From Candidatus Tepidifontimicrobium thermophilum (lineage in GTDB: Bacteria; Sysuimicrobiota; Sysuimicrobiia; Sysuimicrobiales; Sysuimicrobiaceae): a stretch of 19,654 nucleotides of DNA. This document shows, piece after piece, positions 1,335 to 19,581 of this stretch. The stretch lies in the NCBI GenBank assembly GCA_031459915.1, contig JAVKHO010000028.1, positions 1 through 19,654 on the forward strand, in the 5' to 3' direction. Each line of letters starts with the position of its first letter. Position 1 is the first letter of the stretch. The notes under the pieces are model-generated. The model saw only the letters and a program-made list of their open reading frames with translations, did not search any database and was not told the origin of the DNA. The translations under genes were made by a program, and so were the position numbers.

Positions 1335-2138
1335 ATGGAGGCACCGGTACAGCCCCTGACGTACGGACGGTACCTGCGGGTGCCCGAGCTGCTGTCCCTG
1401 CAGGCCCGCCTGAGCGAGGCCCACGACGAGCTGCAGTTCATCGTGGTCCACCAGGTCTTCGAGCTGTGGTTCAAGCTGGCCCTCTTCGAGCTGGAGGCAG
1501 CGCGGCAGAGCCTGGACCACGACCAGCTGCGTGAGGCGGCACGGCTGCTGCACCGGTCCACGGCGGTGCTTCGGACCGCCACCTCGGCCTTCGACGTTCT
1601 GGAGACTATGCGTCCGTGGGACTTCCTGGAGTTCCGGTCGCGGCTGAAGCCGGCCAGCGGATTCCAGAGCCGCCAGTTCCGAGAGCTGGAGTTTCTCTCA
1701 GGGCTCAAGGACCCGCGCTACCTGCGAAACTTCGAGTCCGACCCCGAAGACTGGACCGCGCTGCAGCGCCGCCTCCATGAGCCCAGCCTGTGGGACGCTT
1801 TCGTGGGGGTGCTCCGGCGGCAGGGGCTGCCGGCTGACGAGGAGCCCCGACTCCTTGAAGCCCTCATCCGGGTGCTCCGGGACTCTGGGTCAGAACTGAA
1901 CCGGCTGTGCGAGGTCCTCGTGGAGTACGACGAGACGCTGGCCCTGTGGCGGTACCGTCACCTGCTGATGGTGGAGCGGGTGATCGGGGCCCGCCCCGGC
2001 ACGGGAGCGGAGGACGTGCACAGAGCCTTCCAGGACTCCCGGGATTACTTCACGGGCGTGGGCTACCTGCGGGACACGCTGTCCAAGCGGTGCTTCCCCC
2101 TGCTGTGGGAGGCCCGGACCTTCGTGGAGCGGGAATGA
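1335..2138 (+). CDS. kynA: Tryptophan 2,3-dioxygenase, about 267 aa
   Basis: ATG 1335 after GGTGAGGG. TDO motifs LTYGRYL, HDELQFIVVHQVFELWFK, FLEFRSRLKPASGFQSRQFRELEF, WRYRHLLMVERVIG (proximal haem His) and FPLLWEART. Confidence 0.95.
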   Translation: MEAPVQPLTYGRYLRVPELLSLQARLSEAHDELQFIVVHQVFELWFKLALFELEAARQSLDHDQLREAARLLHRSTAVLRTATSAFDVLETMRPWDFLEFRSRLKPASGFQSRQFRELEFLSGLKDPRYLRNFESDPEDWTALQRRLHEPSLWDAFVGVLRRQGLPADEEPRLLEALIRVLRDSGSELNRLCEVLVEYDETLALWRYRHLLMVERVIGARPGTGAEDVHRAFQDSRDYFTGVGYLRDTLSKRCFPLLWEARTFVERE

Positions 2139-3289
2139 TGGAAGACGTCCTTTTGCGGTGGAGACGGGAGTTTCCGATCCTTGAGCGCACCACGTACCTC
2201 GTCTCCCACTCCATGGGAGCGATGCCGCACTCCGCGCGCGTGTGGGTCCAGCGCTACCTGGACGCGTGGGAGACAGAGGGCGTGACCGCGTGGGAGACGT
2301 GGGAGGCGTACCTCCGGGACCACGCGGACCGGATCGCGCAGCTCATCGGGGCTCCACCGGGCAGCGTGGTGATGCACCAGAACGTCACCACCCTGTTCGG
2401 CGCCCTGCTGTCGGCCCTGGTCCGGCCGGGGCGAAGGCGCAAGGTCGTCGCCACGGACCTGAACTTCCCGTCCCTCCTGTACACGGTCCGCGCCCACGAG
2501 TCTTTGGGGCTGCAGCTGGAGCTGATCCACAGCCCCGACGGCGCCACGATCCCCGTGGACGCCTGGGCGCAGGCGGTGGACACCCGGACTCTGGCCGTCC
2601 TGGTGGACCACGGGATTTTCCGGTCGGGTTTCTTGCAGGACGTAGTAGCCATCGGGGAGCTGGCCCGTCGACGCGGGGCGTGGGTGGTGGTGGACGCGTA
2701 CCAGACGGCCGGCTGCGTCCCCTTTGACGTCCGGGACTGGCCCGTGGACGTGGTTTTGGGAGGGTCGCACAAGTGGCTGTGCGGGGGCCCGGGGGCCGCC
2801 TGGATGTACGTGGCCCCGGAGCAGGCAGACCGGCTGGAACCCGCGCTGGCAGGCTGGTTCGGGCACCGCGAGCCGTTCGCCTTCGACCTGGAGCTGAGCT
2901 ACGCAGCCGGGGCGATGCGGTTTGCCACCGGCACCCCGGGGATGGCGGCCCTGTTCGCGGCTCGAGCCGGACTGGAGGTCGTCCTGGAAGTGGGCGTACG
3001 GGCGATCCGGGAGTGGTCTCAAGCCCTCGGCCAGCAGATGGTGGACCGCGCGGACTCCCTCGGGCTGGAAGTCCGGAGCCCCCGAAACCCGGAACTCAGG
3101 ACGGGCATGGTGGTGGTGGACTTCCCGGGTGCGGAGGAGACTGCACGGGACCTGGTGGCCCGGAAGATTCTGGTGGACTACCGCCCGGGAGCCGGCATCC
3201 GTATGTCCGCGCACTTCTACACTCACCCGCAAGAGGTGCAGGCGGCCTTCGAGGTCATCGGCGACCTGGCGCGACGCGTTCGCCGGTAG
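2135..3289 (+). CDS. kynU: Kynureninase-like PLP enzyme (aminotransferase class V fold), about 384 aa
   Basis: ATGA overlap with the kynA stop. RREFPIL..TYLVSHSMG, VVVDAYQ, GGSHKWLCGGPG (PLP Lys), LEPALAGWFGH..PFAF, RFATGTP, VDYRPGAGIRMSAHFY. The fold is certain; the kynU assignment rests on these motifs plus coupling to TDO. Confidence 0.8.
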   Translation: MMEDVLLRWRREFPILERTTYLVSHSMGAMPHSARVWVQRYLDAWETEGVTAWETWEAYLRDHADRIAQLIGAPPGSVVMHQNVTTLFGALLSALVRPGRRRKVVATDLNFPSLLYTVRAHESLGLQLELIHSPDGATIPVDAWAQAVDTRTLAVLVDHGIFRSGFLQDVVAIGELARRRGAWVVVDAYQTAGCVPFDVRDWPVDVVLGGSHKWLCGGPGAAWMYVAPEQADRLEPALAGWFGHREPFAFDLELSYAAGAMRFATGTPGMAALFAARAGLEVVLEVGVRAIREWSQALGQQMVDRADSLGLEVRSPRNPELRTGMVVVDFPGAEETARDLVARKILVDYRPGAGIRMSAHFYTHPQEVQAAFEVIGDLARRVRR

Positions 3290-3343
3290 CCGGAGGGGGA
3301 ACGGACGTCACGATCCTCAGGGGTGGGTCCGCACGGTAGATAG

Positions 3344-3373
3344 TTGACAAGTCAAAATTTGACCCGTTAGAGT
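3344..3373 (+). promoter_or_regulatory. Sigma70-type promoter of the abm operon overlapped by palindromic operator(s)
   Basis: Consensus TTGACA (3344-3349), 18 nt, TAGAGT (3368-3373) in a strongly AT-rich patch. Inverted repeats TTGAC-AA-GTCAA (3344-3355) and GTCAAA-A-TTTGAC (3351-3363). RBS GGAGG at 3400-3404. Confidence 0.75.
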
Positions 3374-3414
3374 TGAGCCAAGTCCACGAGACGGTCGACG
3401 GAGGTCGCGGGGCC

Positions 3415-5811
3415 ATGCGGGTGGTGTGTGTCGGTGGTGGTCCCGGGGGGTTGTACGCGGCCATCCTCCTGCGGAAGCTGGACCCCCGCTGTCGGGTGGT
3501 GGTCTACGAACGCAACCGGCCCGACGACACCTTCGGGTGGGGCGTGGTCCTCTCGGACAGCACCCTCGGCAGCCTGCAGGTCGCGGACCGCGAGAGCTAC
3601 GACGAGATCCAGCGGGCCTTCTACCACTGGGACGACATCGAGATTCACTTCCGGGGGCGGGTGATCCGGTCCGGCGGACACGGCTTCGCCGGGATCGCCC
3701 GGACGACCCTGCTGCGCATCCTGCAGGACCGCGCCCGGTCCCTGGGCGCGGAGCTGGTGTTCCAGCACGAGGTGGAGGACGTGGAGGAGCTCGCCCGGGA
3801 CGCGGACCTGGTGGTGGCGGCGGACGGCGTGAACAGCCGGACCCGCAGCCGCTACGGGGACGCCTTCGGGGCGGAGGTGGAGTGGGGCCGGTGCCGCTAC
3901 GTGTGGCTGGGAACCCACCGCCCCTTCGACGCCTTCACCTTCGCGTTCCAGGAGACCCCGTGGGGATGGTTCACCGTGCACGCGTACCCCTTCGACGGCG
4001 GGACCAGCACCTTCATCGTGGAGACCCCCGAGGAGGTGTGGCGCGCCGCGGGCCTGGACCGTATGGACAAGGACGAGTCCATCGCCTTCTGCGAGGCGCT
4101 GTTCGGCTGGCTCCTGCAGGGGCACCGGCTGATGTCCAACGCCGCGCACCTGCGGGGTTCGGCCCACTGGCTGCGTTTTCCCTGGCTGCAGTGCCGTCGG
4201 TGGGTCCACGCCCTGGAGGTGGACGGCCGGCGCGTCCCCCTGGTCCTGTTGGGAGACGCCGCACACACCGTTCACTTCTCCGTGGGTTCTGGCACGCGGC
4301 TGGCCATGGAGGACGCCATCGGGCTCGCCAAGGCCCTGGCCCAGCACGGCTGGCAGGACCGGGACTCCCTGCAGGCGGCGGTGGAGCGGTACGAGGCGGA
4401 GCGCCAGACGGAGCTGCTGCGCCTGCGCAACGCCGGCCGGAATTCCGCGGAGTGGTTCGAGAACGTCCGCCGCTACGTGCACCTCGAGCCGGAGCAGTTC
4501 GCGTACACCCTCCTGACCCGGTCCCAACGGCTGTTCCACGAGGAGCTGCGGCGGAGGGACCCGCAGTACGTGGCGTCCTTCGAGCGGTGGTTCGCCGGCC
4601 GGTGCGGCCTCGGGGAGCGGCCCGTCCCTCCCATGTTCACGCCCTTCCAGCTCCGGGGGGTCCGGCTGAAGAACCGGGTGGTGGTCTCGCCCATGGCGAT
4701 GTACTCCGCGGAGGACGGCACCGTAGGCGACTTCCACCTGGTCCACCTGGGTGCTCGGGCGCTCGGCGGCGCGGCGCTGGTGTTCACCGAGATGACGTGC
4801 GTGTCCCGCGAGGGGCGTATCAGCCCGGGCTGCGCGGGGCTGTACAAGCCGGAGCACGTGGAGGCCTGGCGGCGGATCGTGCAGTTCGTGCACCAGCACA
4901 CCGACGCCAGGATCGGGATCCAGCTGGGCCACTCGGGGCCCAAGGGCTCCACCCGGGTGGGCTGGGAGGGCTACCACGAGCCCCTTCCAGAGGGGAACTG
5001 GCCCGTGATGGGACCCTCCCCGATCCCCTGGGGGCCGGGGAACCAAATTCCGCGCGAGATGACCCGGGAGGACATGGACCGCGTGGTGGCGGAGTTCGTC
5101 CGGGCGACCCGGTGGGCCGCGGAGTGCGGGTTCGACTGGCTGGAGGTCCACTGCGCTCACGGGTACCTGCTGTCCGCCTTCATCAGCCCCCTTACGAACC
5201 GCAGGACCGACGCGTACGGGGGGAGCCTGGAGAACCGCATGCGGTTTCCCCTGGAGGTGGTGCGCGCGGTGCGGGACGTCTGGCCGGACCACCTGCCGCT
5301 GTCGGTCCGCATCTCCGCCCACGACTGGGCGCCCGGCGGCGTCACACCGGACGACGCGGTGCAGATCGCGCGGATGTTCAAAGAGGTGGGGGTGGATCTC
5401 ATCGACGTGTCCAGCGGCCAGACCACCCGGGACGCCCGGCCCGCCTACGGCCGCCTGTACCAGACGCCGTTTGCGGACCGCATCCGCCACGAGGTGGGGA
5501 TCGCCACCATGGCGGTGGGATCCATCTACGAGGCAGACCATGTGAACTCCATCATCGCCGCCGGTCGGGCTGACCTGTGCGCCATCGCGCGTCCCCACCT
5601 GGCGAACCCCCACTGGACCTTGGTGGAGGCGGCGCGGATCGGCTACCCGGACGTGCCTTGGCCCAAGCAGTACCTGGACGGCAAGGACCAGCTGGAGCGC
5701 TTGATGGCCCGCGCCCGGGCGGCCGAGGAGGGCGGACGGGCGGCTCTGGAGGAGCTGGAGAGGGTGCTGGCCCGCGCGGCGCAGGACCGGGCGCGGGTGA
5801 CGGTGGGCTAG
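3415..5811 (+). CDS. abmA: 2-aminobenzoyl-CoA (anthraniloyl-CoA) monooxygenase/reductase (bifunctional salicylyl-CoA 5-hydroxylase/oxidoreductase family), about 798 aa
   Basis: ATG 3415 after GGAGG. N-terminal FAD monooxygenase ([50 protein letters not shown]) fused to an Old Yellow Enzyme-type flavin reductase ([39 protein letters not shown]). Confidence 0.93.
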
Positions 5812-5823
5812 CCGGAGGTCCCG

Positions 5824-6345
5824 GTGCCGTCGAGGAAGCATGGGGCGGTGGAGCTTCTGGGGCTGGAAGCCCGCGCTACGGAGGAGGACCACAAGTCCAT
5901 CCGGCTGTGGCTGCGGCTCCTGTCGGCCACCAATCTGGTGAAGAACGAGGTGCAGTCGCGGTTGAGGCGCACCTTCGGGACCACCCTGGCCCGGTTCGAC
6001 CTGCTGGCGCAGCTGGAACGGCACCCGGAAGGGCTGGCCATGGGGCCGCTTTCGAAGCGCATGATGGTGACCGCGGGCAACGTGACGCGGCTGGTGGACC
6101 AGCTGGAGGCCGAGGGTCTGGTGACCCGTGTCCCGGACCCGCGGGACCGCCGGACGGTCCGGGTGCGCCTGACCGCGGAGGGGCGGCGGCGGTTCGCCGC
6201 GATGGCCGCGGTCCACGAGGGCTGGATCGTAGAACTGTTCCGGGGACTGTCCCGGGAGGACCGCGAGCAACTGTACGGGCTGCTGGCGGCACTCAAGCAG
6301 AGCGTGGCGCGGGCGCTGGCACGGGAGGGAGGTCGGGCGGGATGA
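5824..6345 (+). CDS. MarR-family transcriptional regulator, 173 aa
   Basis: GTG after GGAGG (5814-5818). [42 protein letters not shown]...VRLTAEGRR winged-helix signature. Confidence 0.93.
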
Positions 6346-7202
6346 CGGAGTGGACGCGGTTCATGAGACCTGTCTGGATGCCGGGGGACACAGGGGGTCT
6401 AGAGGGGTTCCGGCCCGAGCACGTGGACTGGTCGGTAGACGACGGGGTGGGGACTGTGACCCTACGCCGGCCCCACCGGAAGAACGCCCTGACCTTCGAC
6501 AGCTACGGTGAGCTACGGGACCTGTTCACGCGCCTAGCCGCTGCCCCGGAGGTCCGCGTGGTGGTGCTGACCGGAGCGGGCGGGGAGTTCTCTTCGGGCG
6601 GGGACGTGTTCGACATCATCGGCCGGCTGGTGGAGACGGACATGCCGGGGCTAGTGCGCTTCACCCGCATGACCACGGAGGTGGTCCGGCAGATGCGCCG
6701 GTGCCCGCAACCCCTCATCGCGGCGGTGGACGGGGTGTGCGCGGGCGCGGGCGCGGCCCTGGCCCTGGCCTGCGACCTGCGGGTCGGGACCCCGCGCAGC
6801 CGGGTGGGTTTCCTGTTCACCCGCGTGGGCCTGGCGGGCTGCGACATGGGAGCCTGCGCCCTACTGCCGCGGGTAGTGGGAGCCGGCCGGGCCGCGGAGC
6901 TCCTGTACACCGGCCGCATGCTGGAGGCGGAGGAGGCGGAGCGCTGGGGGTTCTTCAACCGCGTGGTGCCGTCGGAGGAACTGATGCCCGCGGCGTGGGA
7001 GCTGGCGCGGGAGCTGGCTACTGGCCCTTCGTTCGCGCTGGCCATGACCAAGCGGATGCTGATGCAGGAGTGGAGCCTAGGCGTGGACGAGGCGCTGGAG
7101 GCGGAGGCGCAGGCGCAGGCCATCTGCATGGCCACCCGGGACTTCGACCGGGCGTACCGGGCTTTCGCCTCCCGGGCGAAACCTGAGTTCCAGGGGGACT
7201 GA
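6342..7202 (+). CDS. Enoyl-CoA hydratase/isomerase (crotonase) family protein, about 286 aa
   Basis: ATGA overlap with the marR stop, [68 protein letters not shown]. Confidence 0.92.
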
Positions 7203-7208
7203 CCGCGG

Positions 7209-8429
7209 ATGCGGGGTCCGGACTTCCTGGACTGGCCCTTCTTCGAGCCGCACCACCGCGTGCTGTGCGCGGACCTGGAGGGCTGGGCCCGGGAGGCGTT
7301 GCGGTGGAGCGAGCCGGAGGACGTGGACGCGGCCTGCCGGCGCCTCGTGACGGACCTCGGCCGGGCGGGCTGGCTGCGTTACGCGGTATGCGGCCGGGAG
7401 TTCGGGGCGGCGCAGGACGCCCTGGACGTCCGCAGCCTGTGTCTGATCCGGGACACCCTCGCGTACCACCACGGCCTTGCGGACTTCGCTTTCGCCCTTC
7501 AGGGACTGGGCTCCGGGCCCCTGAGCCTGTTCGGCAGCGAAGCGCAGCGCCGACGGTACCTACCCAGGGTGGCGGCCGGGGAGTGGGTGGCGGCGTTCGC
7601 GCTCACGGAACCGGAGGCCGGCTCCGACGCGGCCGCCCTGCGGTGCGAGGCAAAGCCTGCGGACGGCGGCTACCTGCTCAACGGCACCAAGACCTTCGTG
7701 TCCAACGGGGGGATCGCGGACTTCTACGTGGTGTTCGCGCGGACCGGCGAGGCACCGGGCGCGCGCGGGATCACCGCCTTCGTGGTGGACTCAGGTAGCG
7801 CGGGAGTTGAGGTAGCCGAGCGCATCCAGACTTCCGCGCCTCACCCCCTTGCGAGGCTGCGCTTTTCCGACTGCTGGATCCCCTCCACACAGCGGGTGGG
7901 AGGCCCGGGCGAGGGGTTCCGGATCGCCATGCGGACCCTGGACGTGTTCCGGACCACGGTGGCCGCCGCGGCCGTGGGTTTTGCCCGCCGCGCCCTGGAG
8001 GAAGCCCTGGACCGGGCGGTGGCCCGGCGGCTGTTCGGCGGGACCCTGGCCGACCTGCAGCTCACCCAGGCCCGGCTGGCGGACATGGCAGCGCGGGTGG
8101 ATGCCTCCGCCCTGCTCACGTACCGGGCTAGTTGGCTGCACGACCGCGGGGCCCGAGCGGTGAGGGAAGCTGCTATGGCCAAGATGGTGGCCACCGAGAA
8201 CGCCCAGCAGGTGGTGGACGCGGCGGTCCAGCTGTGGGGAGGGCTGGGGGTCACCCGGGGCACCGTGGTGGAGTCCCTGTACCGGTACGTGCGGGCCCTG
8301 CGCATCTACGAGGGCGCTACGGAGGTCCAGCAGCTGGTGGTGGCGAGGGAGCTGCTGCGTGGCCGGCACACCGCGGAGGAGGGGGGAGAGCATGGCACAG
8401 ACGGCTCTGGTGGACCGGTTCGTCCTTGA
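7209..8429 (+). CDS. Acyl-CoA dehydrogenase family protein, 406 aa
   Basis: [58 protein letters not shown] (catalytic Glu position). Confidence 0.95.
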
Positions 8430-10020
8430 CCGCTTGCCGCCTCCCGAGCTGCTGCCGGAGTTCCTGTTCGAGCTGCCGGAGCTGCAGTACCCGGAGCGCC
8501 TGAACTGCGCCGGCCCGCTGCTGGACCGGTGGGTCGCCACCGGCGGTGGGGAGCGGGTGGCTCTGCGGGCGCCCGGACTGACCTGGACGTACCGGGACCT
8601 GTGGGTGCACGCGAACCGCGTCGCCCGGGTGCTGACCGAGGATTTCGCGCTGCAGCCCGGAAACCGCGTGCTCCTGAGGGCCCCCAACCACCCCATGCTG
8701 GCTGCGTGCTGGTTCGGGGTGGTGAAGGCCGGTGGCGTGGTGGTCACCACCATGCCTTTGCTCCGGCAGAAGGAACTGACCGACATCCTCACCAAGGCGG
8801 AGGTCAGCCACGTGGTGTGCGACGTCCGGCTGCGGGAGGAGCTGGACGCCGCGGTGGCGCGGTGCCCCTGGGTCCGCGAGGTGGTGTACTTCGGGGACGA
8901 CGCTCCGGGCAGTCTCGAGGCCCGCATGGCGCGTAAAACCCAGGACTTCCAGAACGTGGACACCGCCTGCGACGACCCGGTTCTCATCGCCTTCACCTCG
9001 GGGACCACGGGCAAGCCCAAAGGGTGCGTGCACTTCCACCGGGACGTGCTGGCCATCTGCGACACCTTCGCCCGGCACGTGGTCCGGGCCACGCCGGACG
9101 ACGTGTTCATCGGAAGCCCGCCCCTGGCCTTCACCTACGGGCTGGGAGGGCTCCTGGTGTTCCCCCTGCGGATCGGGGCCAGCAGCGTGCTGCTGGAGCG
9201 GGCGGGGCCGGACGAGCTGCTGGAGGGGATCGAGCGGTACGGCGCCACGGTGTGCTTCACCGCTCCCACCGCGTACCGGGCCATGGCCCCCAAGACGGGC
9301 GGACGCAGGCCTGGACAGCTCCGGAAGTGCGTGTCCGCGGGTGAAGTCCTGCCGGCGTCCACGCGGCTGCAGTGGCGCGAGGCCACGGGGATCGAGATCC
9401 TCGACGGCATCGGGTCCACGGAGATGCTGCACATCTTCATCTCCCACACGGAGGAGGAGGCGAAGCCCGGGGCCACGGGGAAGCCCGTGCCCGGCTACCG
9501 GGCCTGCGTGCTGGACGACGAGGGCCGCCCGCTGCCTGCGGGCACGGTGGGCCGGCTGGCGGTGAGGGGCCCTACGGGGTGCCGCTACCTGGACGACCCG
9601 CGGCAGCGGGACTACGTGCAGGGCGGGTGGAACGTGACGGGCGACGCGTATCTGGTGGACGAGGACGGCTACTTCGTGTACCAGGCCCGGACCGACGACC
9701 TCATCATCTCCGCCGGGTACAACATCGCGCCCGCGGAGGTGGAGGAGGCCCTGCTGACCCACCCCGCGGTCGCGGAGTGCGGGGTGGTGGGCGTCCCGGA
9801 CCCGGAGCGGGGCCAGGTGGTGCGGGCCTACGTGGTCCTGCGTCCGGGGTTCGCGCGAGGTCCGGAGATGGTGCGCGAGCTGCAGGAGCACGTGAAGGCC
9901 CGACTTGCCCCGTACAAGTACCCGCGGCAGGTGGAGTTCTGCGGGGAGCTGCCCAGGACGGAGACAGGCAAACTCCAGCGCTTCCGGCTCCGGGAGTGGG
10001 CCCGCGGGGGAGTCCAGTAG
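8392..10020 (+). CDS. abmG: 2-aminobenzoate (anthranilate)-CoA ligase, benzoate-CoA ligase family, about 542 aa
   Basis: ATG 8392 after GGAGGGGGGAG. N-terminus [17 protein letters not shown]...[12 protein letters not shown]-loop [62 protein letters not shown]. Context with abmA supports the substrate call. Confidence 0.85.
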
Positions 10021-10048
10021 AGGGCTTCGGTGGAAGCGGAGGGACCCG

Positions 10049-10516
10049 ATGGAGATCCTGCAGCCCGTGCGGTGGAAGCGGCCCCGGGGCTACAGCCACG
10101 GCGTGGTGGCCCGGGGAACGTGGGTGTTCGTGGCCGGGATGGTGGGCTGGGACAACGCCTGTGAGGAGTTCGACAGCCTGGACTTCGTGGACCAGGCCCG
10201 CCGGGCGCTGGAGAACATCGTGGCGGTCCTGGAGGAGGCAGGGGCTCGACCCGAGCACCTGGTCCGGCTCACCTGGTACGTCACGGACCGGGACGAGTAC
10301 CTGAGCTCCCTGGAGCGGCTCGGCCAGGTGTACCGGGAGGTGATCGGCCGTCACTACCCCGCCATGTCCGTGGTGGAGGTGAAGGGGCTCGTGGAGCCCG
10401 GGGCCAAGGTGGAGATCGAGGCCACCGCGGTGATCCCGGACGGCGAGGGCGAACCCGGGCGGCCAGCGGTTTTTGGCGAAAACAGAAACACCCACGGAAG
10501 GGGGGAAGACACGTGA
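10049..10516 (+). CDS. Rid (YjgF/YER057c/UK114) family protein, about 155 aa
   Basis: ATG 10049 after GGAGGGA. PRGYSHGV, VFVAGMVGWD, QARRALENI..VLEEAG, YPAMSVVEVKGLVEPGAKVEIEATAV. Confidence 0.92.
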   Translation: MEILQPVRWKRPRGYSHGVVARGTWVFVAGMVGWDNACEEFDSLDFVDQARRALENIVAVLEEAGARPEHLVRLTWYVTDRDEYLSSLERLGQVYREVIGRHYPAMSVVEVKGLVEPGAKVEIEATAVIPDGEGEPGRPAVFGENRNTHGRGEDT

Positions 10517-11694
10517 GGAGCAGGTGGGTAGTCGGCGTGGTGGTGGTGCTGGCCAGCTCGCTCCTGGTGTCCGGGATGGCGGGTGGCCAGGCCCGGACGC
10601 TCCGGGTCGGGTTCGTCAGCACCCTGTCGGGAGGTGGTGCGGCACTGGGGCAGGACGTTCTGGACGCCTTCCAGCTGGCCGTCCGTCACCTGGGCGGGCG
10701 GCTGGGCGGCCTGCCCGTGGAGGTGCTGACCGCGGACGACCAGCTGAACCCGGACGTGGCCCGTGCCGCGGTGGAGCGGTTCCTGCGCAGGGACCGGGTG
10801 GACCTGGTGACGGGCATCATCTTCTCCAACGTGCTCCTGGCGGTGGGAGACCTGGTGTTCAGTAGCGGGGTCTTCTACATCAGCCCCAACGCCGGCCCGT
10901 CCGAGTACGCGGGGGAGCAGTGCAACCTGCACTTCCTCAACGTGGCGTGGCAGAACGACAACATGCACGAGGCCATGGGGCACTACGCGACCCTGAAGAA
11001 CTACGAGACCGCCTTCATCCTGGCCCCCAACTACCCCGCGGGCCGGGACGCCCTGGCCGGGTTCAAGCGGTTCTACAAGGGGCGCGTGGTCAGCGAGGTC
11101 TACACGAGGCTCGGACAGCTGGACTACTCCGCGGAGATCGCGCAGATCCGGGCCGCCCGGCCCCGGGCCGTCTACGCCTTCTACCCGGGAGCCATGGGGG
11201 TGAACTTCATCAAGCAGTACGCGGAGGCGGGCCTCATGCAGCAGGTGCAGCTACTGGTGCCGGGCTTCTCCGCGGACGCGGACGTGATCCGCGCGGTGGG
11301 CAAGCCCATGGTGGGGGTATTCAACAGCTCCCACTGGGCGCTGGAGCTGTTTAACCCCATCAACCGCCGGTTCGTGGAGGACTTCCGGCGCAGCTACGGG
11401 CGGATCCCGACCCTGTACGCGGCGCAGGGGTACGACACCGCCCTGGCCATCGACCACGGGCTGCGGGCGGTGGCCGGGGACCTGGGCCGGAAGGCGGAGT
11501 TCCGCAAGGCCATCCTGTCGGGGTTCGACAGCACCCGGGGCCGGGTGCGGTTCAGCAAGAACGGCTACCCGATCCAGGACTACTACCTGAGGCAGGTGGT
11601 GGAGCTGCCGAACGGGGAGATTGTGAACCGGCTGCGGGGGACCATCTTCCGCAACCACGGGGATGCCTACGTGGAGAAGTGCCGGCTCCCCTGA
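10513..11694 (+). CDS. ABC transporter substrate-binding protein (Liv/HAAT class, aromatic-acid type), 393 aa
   Basis: GTGA overlap. Sec-type signal peptide (MRSRWVVGVVVVLASSLLVSGMAGGQA); VGFVSTLSG, IIFSNVLLAV, YISPNAGPS, AWQND, PNYPAGRD, YAAQGYD. Confidence 0.9.
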   Translation: MRSRWVVGVVVVLASSLLVSGMAGGQARTLRVGFVSTLSGGGAALGQDVLDAFQLAVRHLGGRLGGLPVEVLTADDQLNPDVARAAVERFLRRDRVDLVTGIIFSNVLLAVGDLVFSSGVFYISPNAGPSEYAGEQCNLHFLNVAWQNDNMHEAMGHYATLKNYETAFILAPNYPAGRDALAGFKRFYKGRVVSEVYTRLGQLDYSAEIAQIRAARPRAVYAFYPGAMGVNFIKQYAEAGLMQQVQLLVPGFSADADVIRAVGKPMVGVFNSSHWALELFNPINRRFVEDFRRSYGRIPTLYAAQGYDTALAIDHGLRAVAGDLGRKAEFRKAILSGFDSTRGRVRFSKNGYPIQDYYLRQVVELPNGEIVNRLRGTIFRNHGDAYVEKCRLP

Positions 11695-11719
11695 AGCGGG
11701 CTCCTGAGCGGAGGGTCCC

Positions 11720-12640
11720 GTGCCCGTCTCCCTGGTGCTGGAGCAGCTGCTGAACGGCCTGCAGTTCGGGCTGATGCTGTTCCTCCTGTCCGCGGGGCTG
11801 ACCCTGGTCCTCGGGATGATGGACGTGGTCAACCTGGCGCAGGGGTCCCTTTACATGCTGGGCGCGTACTTCGCTGCCACGCTGGCTGCTGCCACCGGCT
11901 CCTTCTGGGCCGGGCTGGCGGGTGCGGTGCTGGCCACCGCCCTGGTGGCGCTGCTGCTGGAGGCCTCCGTCCTGCGGCGGGTGTACGGGGCTGACCACCT
12001 GACCCAGGTGCTGGCCACCTTCGCCCTGATCCTGGTGTTCAACGAGGCGGTGCGCGCCCTCTGGGGCCCGCAGGCGCTGCTGCTGTCCGTGCCTCCCGAG
12101 CTGGCGCGTCCGGTGACGCTGCTGCCCGGACTCAGCTACTCCGCATACCGGCTGACCGTCATCGGGGCGGGTGCGCTTTTTGCGGTGGGGATGTTCCTGT
12201 TCATCCACCGGACCCGGGTGGGGATGTGGGTGCGGGCGGGCGCGTCCAACCGGCGCATGGCGCAGGCCATGGGGGTGCCCATCCGCAGGGTTTTTACGGG
12301 CGTGTTCGTGACGGGCGCGGCTCTCAGCGCGGTGGCCGGCGCGCTCCTGGGCCCCATCTTCGCCGTCCAGGTGGGCATGGGGGAGGATGTGCTGATCCTG
12401 GCCTTCGTGGCCATCGTGATCGGCGGCATCGGCTCGGTGAAGGGGTCCCTGGTGGGTTCGTTGCTGGTGGGCGTGGTGGACACCGCGGGCCGCGCGTTTC
12501 TCCCCTCAGCGTTCGGCCTTCTGTTCGCCCCTGAAGTGGCCTCCAACCTCGGGCCCACGGTGGCGTCGGTGCTCATCTACCTGCTGATGGCGGTGGTCCT
12601 GTTCGTGCGTCCCAGGGGCCTGTTTCCCGTGCACGGGTAG
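11720..12640 (+). CDS. ABC transporter permease, LivH-like, 306 aa
   Basis: QLLNGLQFG.MLFLLSAGLTLVLGMMDVVNLAQGSLYM, TRVGMWVRAGASN, AFVAIVIGGIGS, RPRGLF; multiple TM segments. Confidence 0.92.
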   Translation: MPVSLVLEQLLNGLQFGLMLFLLSAGLTLVLGMMDVVNLAQGSLYMLGAYFAATLAAATGSFWAGLAGAVLATALVALLLEASVLRRVYGADHLTQVLATFALILVFNEAVRALWGPQALLLSVPPELARPVTLLPGLSYSAYRLTVIGAGALFAVGMFLFIHRTRVGMWVRAGASNRRMAQAMGVPIRRVFTGVFVTGAALSAVAGALLGPIFAVQVGMGEDVLILAFVAIVIGGIGSVKGSLVGSLLVGVVDTAGRAFLPSAFGLLFAPEVASNLGPTVASVLIYLLMAVVLFVRPRGLFPVHG

Positions 12641-12643
12641 CCG

Positions 12644-13620
12644 ATGCGGGCCCGGGACCTTTCCGTGGAGCAGGCCCGGCGCGCCGGCGTGGCGCTGCCC
12701 CGGGCCTTCGTCCTCTGGGGGGCAGGCTCGGTGGCCGGGCTGGTCCTCCTGGCGTTTCCTGCTCTGGCTCAAGCGCTGGAGTGGTCCTACTACCTCAGCC
12801 TGGCCACCAAGGCCCTGATCCTGGTCCTGGCCGCCAGCGCCCTGAACCTCGTTTTGGGCTACGGCGGGCTGGTGAGCTTCGGGCACGCCACCTACTACGG
12901 GCTGGGTGCGTACACCGTGGCGGTCCTGGCCCGGGAAGGGGTCCGTCAGGCGTGGCTGGTGTGGCCCGCGGCGGTGGCCGTGGCGGCCCTGGCGGCTCTG
13001 GCCATCGGGGCGGTGTGCCTGCGCACCCGGGGCCTGTACTTCATCATGATCACCCTGGCGTTCGCGCAGATGGTGTACTACTTCGTGGTCTCCTTCAAGC
13101 AGTACGGGGGCCAGGACGGGCTGCGGGCGCCGCGCACCGACTTCGGCCTCCCCCTGGGGGACGCGGAGGTGTACTACCTGAGCCTCCTCCTGGTGGCCGC
13201 GAGCCTGTTCTTCCTCTGGCGGCTGGTGCACGCCCGCTTCGGCCGGGCCCTGCAGGCAGCCCGGGACAACGAGGTGCGGGCCACCACGGTGGGCTTCCCC
13301 GTGTACCGGATCCAGCTGGTGGCGTTCGTGATCTCGGGAGCCCTCACCGGGCTTGCGGGCGCCCTGATGGCGCACCACACCCAGTACGTCTCGCCCGCCA
13401 TGTTGAGCTGGCCGCAGTCGGGCCACTTCATGTTCATGGTCATCCTGGGCGGGGTGGGGCGGTTCTGGGCCGGGCTGCTGGGAGCGGGAGCCATGGTCCT
13501 GATCGAGGAACTGTTCCACTCCCTCACCGTGTCCTGGCAGCTGTACGTGGGCCTGACGCTGCTGGCGGTGGTCCTGCTGGCCCCGAGGGGGCTCGCGGGG
13601 CTGGTGGAGGGACGGCGGCG

Positions 13621-13624
<4 letters not shown>
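12644..13624 (+). CDS. ABC transporter permease, LivM-like, 326 aa
   Basis: LNLVLGYGGLVSFGHA, RTRGLYFIMITLAFAQM, GGQDGL, FGRALQAARDNE, MVILGG, APRGLAG. The start could be slightly downstream. Confidence 0.92.
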
Positions 13625-15122
<1,498 letters not shown>

Positions 15123-15126
<4 letters not shown>

Positions 15127-15908
15127 GCAGCACGGACCTGGTCGGGCGCGTGGCGGTGGTCACAGGGGGAGGCCGTGGGGTGGGCCGCGCGTGCGCGTTA
15201 GAGCTGGCACAGCGGGGAGCCTCGGTGGCGGTGCTGAGCCGTACGGCGGAACAGGTCCGCCGGGTGGCGGAGGAGGTGCAGGCCATCGGGAGCCCTGGCC
15301 TGGCTGTCGCCTGCGACGTGACCCACCGCGGACAGGTGGAGGAAGCCCTGAGGCAGGTGCGCAGCCAGCTGGGGCCGGTGACGGTCCTGGTGGCTGCGGC
15401 CGGCGTGGCCCGCGGCAGTCCGTTTCTCGAGACCTCCGACGAGGACTGGGAGGAGCACCTTCGGACCAACGTCACGGGCGCCTTCTACGCCATCCGGGCG
15501 GCCCTGCCGGACATGCTGGCGGCAGGTTGGGGACGGGTGGTGGCCGTGGCCAGCGTCGCGTCGAAGGCGGGTTCCCGCTACACCGCGGCGTACACCGCGT
15601 CCAAGCATGCGCTGCTGGGTCTGGTGCGTTGCGTGGCGGTGGAGTTCGCCGACCGCGGGATCACCGCCAACGCGGTGTGCCCGGGCTACCTGGACACGGA
15701 CATGACGGAGGCCAACGTGCACCGCATCGCTGCGCGCACGGGCAGACCGCCGGAGGAAGTGCGGCGGGCGCTGGAACGCACGAGCCCTCAGGGCCGCCTG
15801 TTCACGCCCGAGGAGGTGGCCTCCCTGGTGGGGTACCTGTGCTCGGAGGCCGCTGCGGGCGTCAACGGTCAGGGGATCGTGCTGGACGGCGGTGCCGTGC
15901 AGTCGTGA
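15123..15908 (+). CDS. Short-chain dehydrogenase/reductase (3-hydroxyacyl-CoA dehydrogenase-like), about 261 aa
   Basis: GTGA overlap with the ATPase stop. VVTGGGRGVG, CDVT, VASVAS, YTASK, NAVCPGYLDTDM, NGQGIVLDGG. Confidence 0.93.
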
Positions 15909-15920
15909 GGGGGTGGGCTG

Positions 15921-17531
15921 ATGGTGACCTATGAGGACGTGCCGCAGCGGTTCAACGTGGCCCGCTACTTCCTCCACCGCCACCTGGAGGAGGGCCGTGC
16001 GGACCGCCCGGCCCTGTACAGCGGAGACCGGGCGGTCACCTACCGGGAGCTGGCGGAGCTTTCGAACCGCACCGCCCATGTGCTGCGGGAGCTGGGGGTG
16101 GAGCCCGAGGACCGGGTGCTGCTCGCGCTTTCGGACGGCGTGGAGTTCGTGGCCGCTTGGTACGCGGTGGTGGGGATGGGTGCGGTCTCCGCAGAAGTGT
16201 ACACGTACCTCCACGCTCACGACTACGCCTACTACCTGGACTACGCCCGGCCCCGGGTGGTGCTGACGGACGCCACCACGCACGGGCGCGTGCGGGAGGC
16301 GGCGCGGGAGGTGGGCTTCCGCGGGAAGCTAGTGGCGGTGGGCGTCTCGGAGCTGGAGCCTGGAGAGGTGGACTTCCACCACGCGGTCTGTGGGGCGCCC
16401 GTAGAGCCGATCCTGGCGGACACCCCCAAGGACCAGTTCGCCCTGTGGAAGTTCACCACCGGCACCACGGGCCGGCCCAAGGCCGTGGTGCACTGCCACT
16501 ACGCCCCTTACCTGAGCTTCTGGAACTACGCCCAGGAGGTCATCCGGTACACTCCGGAGGACGTGGTGCTGCCGGTGCCCAAGCTGTTCTTCGGATACGC
16601 GCGGGACTGCACGGCCCTGTTCCCGTTCGGGGTGGGTGCCGCGGGCGTGGTGTTCCCGGAGCGCTCCACCCCCGAGCGGATCTTCGAGCTGGTGGCGCGG
16701 TACCGGCCCACGGTGCTGGTGCAGGTCCCCACCATGATGCGGGCCATGGTCGAGCACCCCGAAGCGCACCGTTACGACCTCTCGTGCGTTCGCCTTGCCA
16801 CCTCTGCGGGGGAGGCGCTACCCGCGGAGCTGTACGCCCGGTGGAAGCAGAAGTTCGGCGTGGAGGTGGTGGACGGCATCGGCTCGTCGGAGCTGTACCA
16901 CATCTACATCTCAAACCGGCCCGGAGAAGTCCGCCCCGGGAGCGTGGGCCGCCCGTGCCCGGGCTACCGGGCGGAGGTCCGGGACCCCGAGGGCCACCCC
17001 CTGCCCGCGGGAGAGGTCGGGGAGCTGTGGGTGTGGGGAGAGACCGCGGCGGTGATGTACTGGCTGGACCGCGGGAAGTCTGTGCGGACCTTCCACGGGA
17101 ACTGGGTGCGCACGGGCGACCTGTTCCGACAGGACGCGGACGGCTTCCTGTGGTACCAGGGCCGCGCGGACGACCTCATGAAGGTAGGCGGCGTGTGGGT
17201 GGCTCCCCTCGAAGTGGAGGAGTGCCTACTCCGGCACCCCCTGGTGCGGGAGTGCGCGGTGGTCCCGGAACTCCGCGGGGGCCTGACCGTACCGGTGGCG
17301 TACGTGGCGCCTCGGGACCCCGCGGAGGCAGGGCCTGAACTCGCCCGGCAGCTCCAGCAGTACGTGCGGGAACACCTCAGCCCCCACAAGTACCCCCGGG
17401 AGGTGCGGTTCGTGGAGGCGTTGCCGCGCACGCCCTCAGGCAAGGTGGACCGCAGGAAGCTGCGGGAGACGGCGGAGCCTTCAGGGGCTGCGGCCGAACC
17501 GGCCGGGCCGGTCTCGGCCTCGCCCTTCTAG
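15921..17531 (+). CDS. Second benzoate-CoA ligase family (aryl-CoA ligase) protein, 536 aa
   Basis: FNVARYFL, WKFTTGTTGRPKAVVH, PKLFFGY, SAGEALP, DGIGSSELYHIYISN, TGDLF, GRADDLMKVGG.WV.P.EVE, HKYPR, PRTPSGK. Confidence 0.9.
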   Translation: MVTYEDVPQRFNVARYFLHRHLEEGRADRPALYSGDRAVTYRELAELSNRTAHVLRELGVEPEDRVLLALSDGVEFVAAWYAVVGMGAVSAEVYTYLHAHDYAYYLDYARPRVVLTDATTHGRVREAAREVGFRGKLVAVGVSELEPGEVDFHHAVCGAPVEPILADTPKDQFALWKFTTGTTGRPKAVVHCHYAPYLSFWNYAQEVIRYTPEDVVLPVPKLFFGYARDCTALFPFGVGAAGVVFPERSTPERIFELVARYRPTVLVQVPTMMRAMVEHPEAHRYDLSCVRLATSAGEALPAELYARWKQKFGVEVVDGIGSSELYHIYISNRPGEVRPGSVGRPCPGYRAEVRDPEGHPLPAGEVGELWVWGETAAVMYWLDRGKSVRTFHGNWVRTGDLFRQDADGFLWYQGRADDLMKVGGVWVAPLEVEECLLRHPLVRECAVVPELRGGLTVPVAYVAPRDPAEAGPELARQLQQYVREHLSPHKYPREVRFVEALPRTPSGKVDRRKLRETAEPSGAAAEPAGPVSASPF

Positions 17532-18287
17532 CACCGCGCGGATCGTGTCCACGAGTAGGTCCGTGAGGGTCTCGAAGGTGCCACGCCCCTCCTCCTGGGT
17601 GGCCGCGGCCGGCGATCCGCAGTAGGCCTGCTCCATCCCCATGGCCTGGAAGTCCCGGAGCCCCGACCTCAGGGCCCCAGGCAGGTCCACAGGCACGTCC
17701 GGAAGAGCCCGCATGGCCTGCACGTCCACCAGCTCGGGACGTTCCGCCAGGACCAGGGAGGTCTCGTAGCGGCCGGCGTGGCAGGAACCGCTGCGGAACT
17801 CTTCCCCCAGCAGCTCCGCCCGCGCCCGACGGGTGAGGTCCAGGTAGCCCACCACCACGCCGGTGCTGGCCTCCACGGCGTCCAGGGCCGCGTGCAGCGC
17901 CTGGACGTGTTCTGGTTCGAAGTGGTTGTTGACCACCACGATCCAGCGGAACCCCTGGCGGACGAGGGAGGTGCACACGTCCGTCACGAGGGCCTGCAGG
18001 CTCTGTGGGGCGATGCCCACCGTGCCGGGAAACCCGGAAGCGCACCGGGTGACACCGTACGCGACAGGAGGCAGGACCAACACCCGGACCTGGGGGTCGT
18101 CCCGGAGCCGTTCTGCGGCCCGCCGGCACATGCCCAGGGAGATGAAAAGGTCGGTGCCCAGGGGGGCGTGCGGCCCGTGGGCCTCCACCGCGCCCACGGG
18201 CAGCAGGAGGACCGGCCTGCGGTGGTGAGAGAGCAGCTCCCGCGCCGCCGGCCAGGACAGGTCTGCGAAGCCGTGGTCCGTCGCCAC
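17481..18287 (-). CDS. Creatininase-family metal-dependent amidohydrolase, 268 aa
   Basis: GTG 18287 after GGGGAA. LSWP, LLLPVGAVEAHGPHAPLGTD, YG...FPGT, VNNHFEPEH, CHAGRYETS: the binuclear metal ligand pattern of the creatininase/ArfB/MftE family. Confidence 0.9.
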   Translation of the reverse strand: MATDHGFADLSWPAARELLSHHRRPVLLLPVGAVEAHGPHAPLGTDLFISLGMCRRAAERLRDDPQVRVLVLPPVAYGVTRCASGFPGTVGIAPQSLQALVTDVCTSLVRQGFRWIVVVNNHFEPEHVQALHAALDAVEASTGVVVGYLDLTRRARAELLGEEFRSGSCHAGRYETSLVLAERPELVDVQAMRALPDVPVDLPGALRSGLRDFQAMGMEQAYCGSPAAATQEEGRGTFETLTDLLVDTIRAVLEGRGRDRPGRFGRSP

Positions 18288-18499: not shown

Positions 18500-18865
18500 A
18501 TGCGCAGGCCCGGCGAGACCGAGACCCTCGGCGCTTACGTCCGTCAGGCCAGGGTGCGGCGGGGCGTGACTTTGCGCCAGCTGGCAGGCCAGCTCGGGAT
18601 CACCCCTTCTTACTTGAGCGACATCGAGAACGACCGGCGCGTGCCCTCTCAGGAGGTGCTGGAGGGGATCTCCCGCCACCTGCGTCTGGACCTGGACGAG
18701 CTGCTGGCGAGGGCGGGCCGGCTGGATCCGGAGACGCAGGAGTACTTGAAGCGCTCCCCGGCCGCCATCCGGCTGTTCCGGAGGATCGCCGCGCACCGGC
18801 TGGACGAGGAGGCTCTGGCGAAGCTGGAGAAGAGCGCGGAGCAGCTCGGGCAGCGGAAGAAATGA
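18500..18865 (+). CDS. XRE-family helix-turn-helix repressor (ImmR/CapH-like), 121 aa
   Basis: LGAYVRQARVRRGVTLRQLAGQLGITPSYLSDIENDRRVPS...LDELLARAGR is a typical HTH_XRE domain. Confidence 0.92.
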   Translation: MRRPGETETLGAYVRQARVRRGVTLRQLAGQLGITPSYLSDIENDRRVPSQEVLEGISRHLRLDLDELLARAGRLDPETQEYLKRSPAAIRLFRRIAAHRLDEEALAKLEKSAEQLGQRKK

Positions 18866-19581
18866 GGCGGTACCGCCACCGGGACGGCTCCCTGCGCGTC
18901 TGGTTCGGTCCGGAGGAGATCGACCAGATGGCGGAGGAGGCCCTGCACAGGGCCGGCCTTCTGCCCCGACTGGAAGCGCCAGTGGTGGACGTGGAGCGGT
19001 TCCTGGAGGGCTACCTGGGGGCGGACCTGGACCAGTATGCCCCGTTGCCCCACGACGTGCTGGGCGCGACGGAGTTCCGGCCCGGAGTTCCTCCCCTGGT
19101 CCAGGTCAACGCGGCCCTCACCCGCGCCGCCCTGGACGACCCGCACCCGCCTCCGGGGAGCCGGGGCCGCTGGCGCGCCACGCTTGCTCACGAGGCCGGA
19201 CACGTCCTCCTCCACCGGGCCCTGGTGGAGCCCGACCCTTCCCAGACCTCGCTCTTCGACCCGCCCGACCGGCTGTTCCGCTGCCTCCAGCGGGAGGTGG
19301 CGTTCGGGGGAGGCAGTGACTGGCGGGAGGTTCAGGCGAACCGGTTCATGGCCGCGCTGCTGATGCCGAAGTCGGTGTTCGTTGCCGCGGTGGTCCGGGC
19401 CAAGCGGCAGGAGGGCCTCCTGCTGACGGACCCGGTCGGGACGGGATCTGTAGAAAGGGTAGCCCGCACGCTCGCCCGGTGGTTTGACGTCTCCCGCCAG
19501 GCCGCGCGCATTCGTCTGCTGGAGCTGGGGCTTGTGGAGACTCCGGGCCAACGTAACCTGTATGCTCCCCGGTTTCCTTGA
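18862..19581 (+). CDS. ImmA/IrrE (DUF955) family zinc metallopeptidase, about 239 aa
   Basis: ATGA overlap with the HTH stop. DVLGATEF, RWRATLAHEAGHVLLH (HExxH), WREVQANRFMAALLMP (third-ligand Glu), C-terminal LARWFDVSRQAARIRLLELG. Confidence 0.92.
   Translation: MRRYRHRDGSLRVWFGPEEIDQMAEEALHRAGLLPRLEAPVVDVERFLEGYLGADLDQYAPLPHDVLGATEFRPGVPPLVQVNAALTRAALDDPHPPPGSRGRWRATLAHEAGHVLLHRALVEPDPSQTSLFDPPDRLFRCLQREVAFGGGSDWREVQANRFMAALLMPKSVFVAAVVRAKRQEGLLLTDPVGTGSVERVARTLARWFDVSRQAARIRLLELGLVETPGQRNLYAPRFP

Follow-up and report, generated by a model that had tools for sequence, protein, structure and literature searches.

A creatininase-family protein that accompanies a distinct benzoate-CoA-ligase subfamily and is predicted to remove a formyl group in bacterial tryptophan degradation

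The 19,654-nucleotide contig JAVKHO010000028.1 of Candidatus Tepidifontimicrobium thermophilum (the window; G000:C21:1-19654 in our numbering, from a genome that is 96% complete) carries a creatininase-family open reading frame (ORF), here called CRN, at 17481-18287 on the minus strand. The gene is real and belongs to PF02633, and its steadiest partner in other genomes is a distinct benzoate-CoA-ligase subfamily (LIG2), not tryptophan 2,3-dioxygenase (TDO) or kynureninase (KynU). On balance, and with rather better than even confidence, we favor a role in which CRN deformylates N-formylanthranilate or its CoA ester, within a tryptophan route that is independent of the arylformamidase KynB and has a dedicated CoA ligase. 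CRN is an uncharacterised new subfamily of a known enzyme family, and probably signals a known pathway in which the order of steps has changed. A literature search, which left most subscription journals outside its reach, found nothing that connects CRN proteins with tryptophan or anthranilate.

The CRN ORF (GTG to TGA, 268 aa) had the top coding score of the six frames under a codon model, with GC fractions of 0.77, 0.51 and 0.88 at the three codon positions. Its sole Pfam match was PF02633, at 189.6 bits against a gathering cut-off of 31.3. The presumed metal-ligand motifs are E35-x-H37, D46, NNHFEPEH (N120 to H127) and CHAGRYET (C169 to T176). Across 86 aligned CRN sequences E35, H37, H40, D46, N120, H122, H170 and E175 were invariant, and position 124 was E in 77 of them and D in the other 9. 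The AlphaFold (AF2) model had a pLDDT of 95.2; its top Foldseek match was the creatininase 1j2t of P. putida (E 1.4e-16, TM 0.73), and ESM Atlas returned creatininase-family clusters only. An earlier reading of the window, made from the sequence only, had proposed a creatininase-family amidohydrolase with intact metal motifs, and this is borne out. That reading had also pointed to NNHFEPEH as a variant loop. The loop is present, replacing the NGHGGN that we take to be the common form, but it is not unique, as it aligns with NGHYEN of the P. putida enzyme. By this alignment H122 and E124 correspond to creatininase H120 and E122, the latter being a residue mutated in solved structures; in full, creatininase E34/H36/D45/H120/E122/H178/E183 align to CRN E35/H37/D46/H122/E124/H170/E175. 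There are also clear differences from creatininase. Identity is about 26%, CRN scores 102.6 against a cut-off of 235 for TIGR04448, and in this low-identity alignment both of the studied tryptophans, W154 and W174, are replaced in CRN, by L149 and G167. With the pockets of hydrolase and ligase alike judged from alignments, CRN appears to be an intact hydrolase whose pocket differs from that of creatininase. We classify it as a creatininase-fold metalloamidohydrolase of an N-x-H-[FL]-[ED]-P subfamily, with a presumed binuclear metal site, and a predicted aryl-formamidase.

The 3' end of CRN, at its stop codon, overlaps by 51 bp the 3' end of the convergent LIG2 gene (15921-17531, plus strand). 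A scan for sigma-70 promoters and terminators around CRN gave zero matches. One of three raw-read RNA runs reached about 0.5x depth within CRN, all of it from reads that run counter to the majority of those over the plus-strand operon; these reads, possibly from a related strain, are too sparse to speak of expression, and the contig run cannot show transcription.

The genomic context of CRN was analyzed in 160 loci, consisting of the best 80 relatives of CRN (first set) and the best 80 found with an acidobacterial homolog as query (second set). Pseudonocardiaceae and Gemmatimonadota make up most of these samples, the loci are not independent, and the ORF caller mis-starts some genes (for example in L044 and L080). 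Linkage of CRN to kyn and abm genes was kept across Actinomycetota, Sysuimicrobiota/Armatimonadota, Gemmatimonadota, Acidobacteriota and Chloroflexota, and CRN is frequently a co-directional member of the operon. LIG2 was found in 69/80 first-set and 53/80 second-set loci, SDR-family genes in 44/80 and 66/80 (110/160 together), enoyl-CoA hydratase family genes (ECH) in 51/80 and 61/80, and genes for the 2-aminobenzoyl-CoA monooxygenase/reductase AbmA in 42/80 and 38/80. TDO, counted per set, was present in 49/80 and 31/80; a separate count over all 160 loci gave 81 with TDO and likewise 81 with a kynureninase homolog. At the level of whole genomes TDO was found in 47 of 50 CRN genomes, and an AbmA-like match, in some cases partial, also in 47 of 50. 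In Pseudonocardiaceae the gene order is KynU-TDO-PaaX divergent from LLM-AbmA-CRN-LIG2-SDR-ECH-RidA-ACAD (ACAD, acyl-CoA dehydrogenase), reduced in some loci to KynU-TDO-CRN-LIG2. In Gemmatimonadota CRN comes first in an operon that ends with TDO-KynU, and the ligase is divergent. Genes for mycofactocin, riboflavin or creatine metabolism were absent from the conserved neighbors in the 31 representatives scanned; a predominance of such neighbors, which the sequence-only reading would have taken as evidence against it, was therefore not seen.

LIG2 was encoded within 122 of the 160 CRN loci. Of the remaining 38, 35 were searched genome-wide and 33 of these were positive, so that LIG2 accompanies CRN in locus or genome for 155/160, with 2 not found and 3 outside the genome search. 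Of 31 genomes related to that of the window, 12 had CRN. These 12 all had a LIG2 ortholog too, as did one further genome that is 72% complete; the two genes were co-retained even when on different contigs. We also searched 49 genomes having TDO with no CRN at the TDO locus. Forty-two of these lacked CRN genome-wide as well; CRN and LIG2 occurred together in 7, CRN alone in 0, LIG2 alone in 2 and neither in 40. In one of the two LIG2-only cases the contig is cut at the ligase, and the other is a biosynthetic-looking cluster of Sphaerisporangium with an alpha/beta-hydrolase nearby. Since the genomes compared are kin and often incomplete, these counts overstate independence. The Sphaerisporangium sp. 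B11E5 cluster (L126:1-13861), whose genome lacks CRN, encodes LIG2, TDO, a KynU of the His type described below, a P450, four methyltransferases, an acyltransferase, an FAD oxidase and the alpha/beta-hydrolase, and might use a formylanthraniloyl unit.

The substrate pocket of CRN-linked ligases reads FFGYARD or [YF]FGYA[TM]G, with Gly at the position of the ortho-blocking Ala227 of BadA, which itself reads FFAYGLG. The anthranilate ligase 4wv3, of solved structure, has FFTFGTG here, and ligases of the AbmG type have AFT[YF]GLG. According to PMC10803450, which cites Thornburg 2015, A227G in BadA increases activity on ortho-substituted substrates. The antimycin ligase AntF is described in PMC3869250 as activating anthranilate and not N-formylanthranilate, which indicates that an ordinary anthranilate ligase can reject the formylated acid. 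The window and three relatives retain both LIG2 and an AbmG-type ligase (LIG1), suggesting that the two have non-redundant substrates; other members of the window-genome family appear to carry LIG2 only, a pattern that fits either order of CRN and LIG2.

The kynureninases of CRN loci also have a characteristic residue, a His in the motif GHSHQ or AHSHQ (99 records) or SHSMG (1 record and the window; duplicates included). KynB-adjacent kynureninases read GNSLG, with Asn at the His position (8 records, 7 genes). This position presumably borders the substrate site. The His-bearing enzymes of CRN loci stem from two divergent lineages, the motif being placed by alignment to 1qz9, and His-type kynureninases also exist without CRN. 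A kynureninase route from N-formylkynurenine to formylanthranilate is given as database-derived in PMC9058172.

From these features we propose a scheme in which the families, motifs, fold model and co-occurrence are observed and the substrates are predicted. TDO, by its annotation, would convert tryptophan to N-formylkynurenine, which the His-type kynureninase would cleave directly to N-formylanthranilate and alanine. LIG2, with its widened ortho pocket, would then form N-formylanthraniloyl-CoA. CRN, judged by its alignment with creatininase, would release formate by means of a metal-bound hydroxide with Glu124 and His170, leaving anthraniloyl-CoA to be degraded by AbmA, SDR, ECH, ACAD and RidA, in keeping with their families. 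In the alternative order CRN would act before LIG2, on the free acid. Taken separately, each order is doubtful: N-formylanthraniloyl-CoA is a possible substrate and somewhat the likelier option, and free N-formylanthranilate is a little less likely. That the substrate lies at the level of anthranilate and not of N-formylkynurenine is suggested by the fact that CRN tracks one CoA-ligase subfamily rather than TDO and KynU, and by the existence of genomes having both CRN and KynB.

At the level of loci the pattern fits a missing formamidase. Seven queries (three KynB-like, three from other cyclases and one alpha/beta-hydrolase) gave no match in the 160 CRN loci. In a control set of 80 AbmG-type loci, fetched with LIG1 as query, CRN was found in 0/80 and KynB in 5 of the 7 that have TDO. 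No KynB scored above 37 bits in the window genome; two cyclases reached 36.8 and 34.2 in comparison with 223 for TIGR03035. One of these cyclases bears a Tat-like signal and shares 36% identity with the cyclase beside the AbmG-type cluster L188, so that it may have a side activity of this kind. Divergent cyclases, for instance those next to the AbmG-type clusters L185 and L188, escape the TIGR03035 model, so "no KynB" here means none by that model. Those two divergent cyclase-family genes, beside AbmG-type clusters free of CRN in Nocardioides and Amycolatopsis (L185:16232-16999 and L188:18137-18910), are themselves possible formamidases. The sequence-only reading had supposed that CRN supplies a deformylase step missing from the cluster; KynB was indeed not found in the 160 loci or in the window genome by these queries, but CRN does not behave as a drop-in KynB and follows the ligase instead.

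Several observations weigh against the role that we favor. Genome-wide, KynB-like genes were matched in 11/97 CRN genomes (4/50 and 7/47 in the two sets) versus 5/42 TDO genomes without CRN (Fisher p = 1), and absence of KynB was rejected as proof of replacement by CRN, being non-specific at this level. The queries used detected neither of the two genes, CRN or KynB, in many genomes with TDO-KynU, and the many genomes with a His-type KynU and without CRN or a TIGR03035 match would need some other deformylase. LIG2 is the only one of the two ligases found in some genomes, and may thus simply be an anthranilate ligase that has been passed on with CRN through the history of the cluster. In Gemmatimonadota and Acidobacteriota the partner within the locus is more often SDR (66/80) than LIG2 (53/80), and CRN-SDR fusions recur there. 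A CRN-kynureninase in-frame fusion (P0067) speaks for the favored role but is known from one sequence only. Lastly, in a quick IQ-TREE analysis of 119 rows, which took in 30 of the 80 clade-B loci and had three outgroups that sit on long branches, the window CRN fell in a clade with 99% support comprising 26 rows, of which 17 are labelled hydantoinase-type and come from loci without TDO or KynU. Other in-frame fusions join CRN to SDR (two clusters, P0003 and P0022, on several contigs) and to RidA (a single case, P0023); fusions to ligase and to AbmA also exist. Together, the fusions confirm that CRN belongs to the pathway but do not fix its step.

One alternative is that CRN is a non-orthologous KynB that converts N-formylkynurenine to kynurenine ahead of kynureninase, with LIG2 an ordinary anthranilate-CoA ligase. 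The exclusion of KynB at the locus level (0/81 versus 5/7), the minimal loci KynU-TDO-(PaaX)-CRN-LIG2 (L022, L078, L084, L085), the CRN-KynU fusion and the near-constant presence of TDO in the 50 CRN genomes are all consistent with it. We nevertheless regard it as unlikely, as in L086 and L089 both CRN and LIG2 have gone although TDO-KynU remain, and as CRN is missing from 42 of the 49 TDO genomes. Moreover, G016 holds a canonical KynB-KynU pair in addition to CRN with hydantoinase genes and LIG2, and G016, G019 and G036, which are metagenome-assembled genomes and possibly incomplete, have CRN with no TDO match. Slightly less likely again is a broader amidase acting on N-acyl-, N-carbamoyl- or N-formimidoyl-anthranilate, chiefly to finish the ring opening of an imported bicyclic lactam, tryptophan being one feed among others. 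The sequence-only reading had raised such an amide or lactam feed, and the hydantoinase-linked subclade keeps it in play. Homologs of hydantoinase/oxoprolinase A and B occur in 16 of the 80 nearest CRN loci, mostly interleaved as CRN-HyuB-LIG2-HyuA with ABC importers and no TDO or KynU, and the window CRN groups with this subclade in the quick tree and shares its C-terminal tail. However, the window genome has no HyuAB ortholog (best identity 26-32%), and TDO and KynU occur in about half of the 160 loci; this explanation would in any case overlap deformylation at the anthranilate level if the lactam product is N-formylanthranilate. The HyuAB proteins (for example L050:6165-11300, and 15 other loci) match PF02538 and PF01968, and the nearest named model is caprolactamase, far below cut-off.

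The operons CRN>SDR>RidA>ECH>ACAD of Gemmatimonadota and Acidobacteriota, the CRN-SDR, CRN-RidA and AbmA-CRN fusions, and the AbmA-like matches in 47/50 CRN genomes could instead place CRN downstream of AbmA, where it would deaminate or open the ring of 2-amino-5-oxocyclohexene-carbonyl-CoA, much as IolN opens a cyclic diketone. Against this improbable step, which we rate just behind the lactam feed, the 80 AbmG-type loci contain AbmA (55), ECH (61), ACAD (59), SDR (46) and RidA (74), yet no CRN, and a subfamily-level CRN match was found in 0/55 AbmG-type genomes, one scoring 182 bits versus 284-412 for members. In addition, CRN scores 54 against 245 for the IolN model, and the minimal loci lack SDR, ECH and AbmA. 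It is very improbable that CRN is an unrelated amidase of creatininase, MftE or ArfB type adjoining the operon by accident, a caution that had been attached to the original prediction in view of the opposite strand. CRN and LIG2 do lie on different contigs in some relatives, but the neighborhood is conserved across phyla, the two genes are co-retained even when unlinked, and CRN scores below all three equivalog cut-offs (creatininase, MftE and IolN); the strand is a local arrangement common to close relatives. Accidental linkage is contradicted by the conserved neighborhood.

Comparison with characterized systems places CRN as follows. Archaeal ArfB, a formamide hydrolase of riboflavin synthesis, belongs to the creatininase family. 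No NCBIfam model named for BrbF or ArfB matched CRN at E <= 1 and no riboflavin neighbors were seen; these two proteins were compared by model and context only. The creatininase-annotated BrbF (SMc02977) is, according to PMC9478397, a measured formamide hydrolase that frees formate from a formylamino-pyrimidine in riboflavin synthesis, and so offers a precedent within the family for the predicted chemistry; the same paper states that BrbF and ArfB are not similar in sequence. No creatine-pathway neighbors were found for CRN. MftE (TIGR03964) and IolN (NF041098) share the Pfam family with CRN, which scores 103.6 against a cut-off of 172 for the former, with no mft genes among the conserved neighbors scanned, and 53.9 against 245 for the latter, with no inositol context found. 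Arylformamidase activity, predicted here for CRN, is EC 3.5.1.9 and frees formate from N-formyl arylamines. CRN resembles KynB (TIGR03035/PF04199, cyclase fold) and the alpha/beta-hydrolase arylformamidases in filling the formyl gap between TDO and anthranilate, and KynB is exclusive with it at the locus level, but the creatininase fold is unrelated, CRN is predicted to act after kynureninase, and it is co-inherited with a CoA ligase and not with TDO/KynU. The abm genes of the Azoarcus/Aromatoleum evansii type serve in aerobic 2-aminobenzoyl-CoA degradation. AbmA, SDR, ECH, ACAD, RidA, an AbmG-type ligase and a binding protein like those of such clusters are all in the window, whereas neither CRN nor an ortholog of the Gly-pocket ligase occurs in any of the 80 AbmG-type loci; the window carries both modules.

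If deformylation at the anthranilate level is correct, CRN would supply the missing formyl-removing step for a large group of bacteria from soil, sediment and hot springs in which TDO and kynureninase are encoded and KynB is not, and would represent a third fold for arylformamidase chemistry. It would also allow three unannotated subfamilies to be assigned by motif, namely CRN, the FFGYARD/YFGYATG ligase and the His-type kynureninase, and a ligase for bulky ortho-acylamino benzoates would be a useful biocatalyst. More tentatively, a "formyl-carrying" tryptophan pathway with His-type kynureninase, Gly-pocket ligase and CRN acting on a CoA thioester may be widespread in Actinomycetota, Gemmatimonadota, Acidobacteriota and Sysuimicrobiota, the CRN-LIG2 module possibly being plugged also behind an ATP-dependent lactamase for a bicyclic N-heterocycle.

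The remaining genes of the cluster are all on the plus strand. TDO (1335-2138; start inferred from a relative, the longest ORF starting at 1224) matches PF03301 and scores 218.6 with TIGR03036, below the 390.7 cut-off. The divergent KynU (2135-3289), in which SHSMG replaces the canonical GNSLG, has 1qz9 as best PDB match (E 2.9e-40) and scores 124.3 against 246.4 for TIGR01814. It is followed by an AbmA-type monooxygenase/reductase (3415-5811; NF006101, 1293 above 1078) and, from domain searches, a MarR regulator (5824-6345), ECH (6342-7202) and ACAD (7209-8429). LIG1 (8392-10020) has the pocket AFTYGLG/STEMLH and the anthranilate-CoA ligase 4wv3 as best PDB match. A RidA-family protein (10049-10516; PF01042) precedes a branched-chain-type ABC importer (10513-15126; PF13458, PF02653) comprising a binding protein, two permeases and a fused double ATPase, the last recognized from the ORF list and relatives. 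The SDR dehydrogenase (15123-15908), a family fused to CRN in P0003 and P0022, adjoins LIG2, which scores 476.7 with TIGR02262, above 375.25, and has the pocket FFGYARD/SSELYH.

The window AbmA, ECH, ACAD, LIG1 and RidA mostly resemble their counterparts in AbmG-type clusters (about 50-70%) more than those in actinobacterial clusters of CRN type (about 35-50%). The reverse holds for SDR, LIG2 and CRN. By these similarities the cluster at 1335-17531 looks like a hybrid. Two more benzoate-CoA-ligase-family paralogs, 42-43% identical to LIG2, are encoded elsewhere in the window genome (G000:C2:71516-81124).

Divergent from CRN are genes for an XRE-family helix-turn-helix protein and an IrrE/ImmA-like Peptidase_M78 protein (18500-19581, plus strand); of 80 related loci just one has a close homolog of the former, which therefore does not belong to the CRN module. 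At the other end of the window are a Y1_Tnp (IS200-like) fragment at the contig edge (3-302) and an ORF with no Pfam match (408 to about 1180), both on the minus strand. In actinobacterial CRN clusters AbmA is shortened (about 680 aa, with a weak OYE domain; NF006101, 765 below 1078) and in 31 loci comes after the gene for an LLM-class oxidoreductase, a possible provider of the reductase step (for example L036:7935-9986 with L062:7090-7917); the two are fused in L014:7035-9941. In Candidatus Sysuimicrobium calidum (L010:12748-17743), CRN is the last gene of an ABC operon close to TDO-KynU and to genes of BadF/G and HGD-D type, and LIG2 is on a separate contig with a short AbmA and an LLM-class gene.

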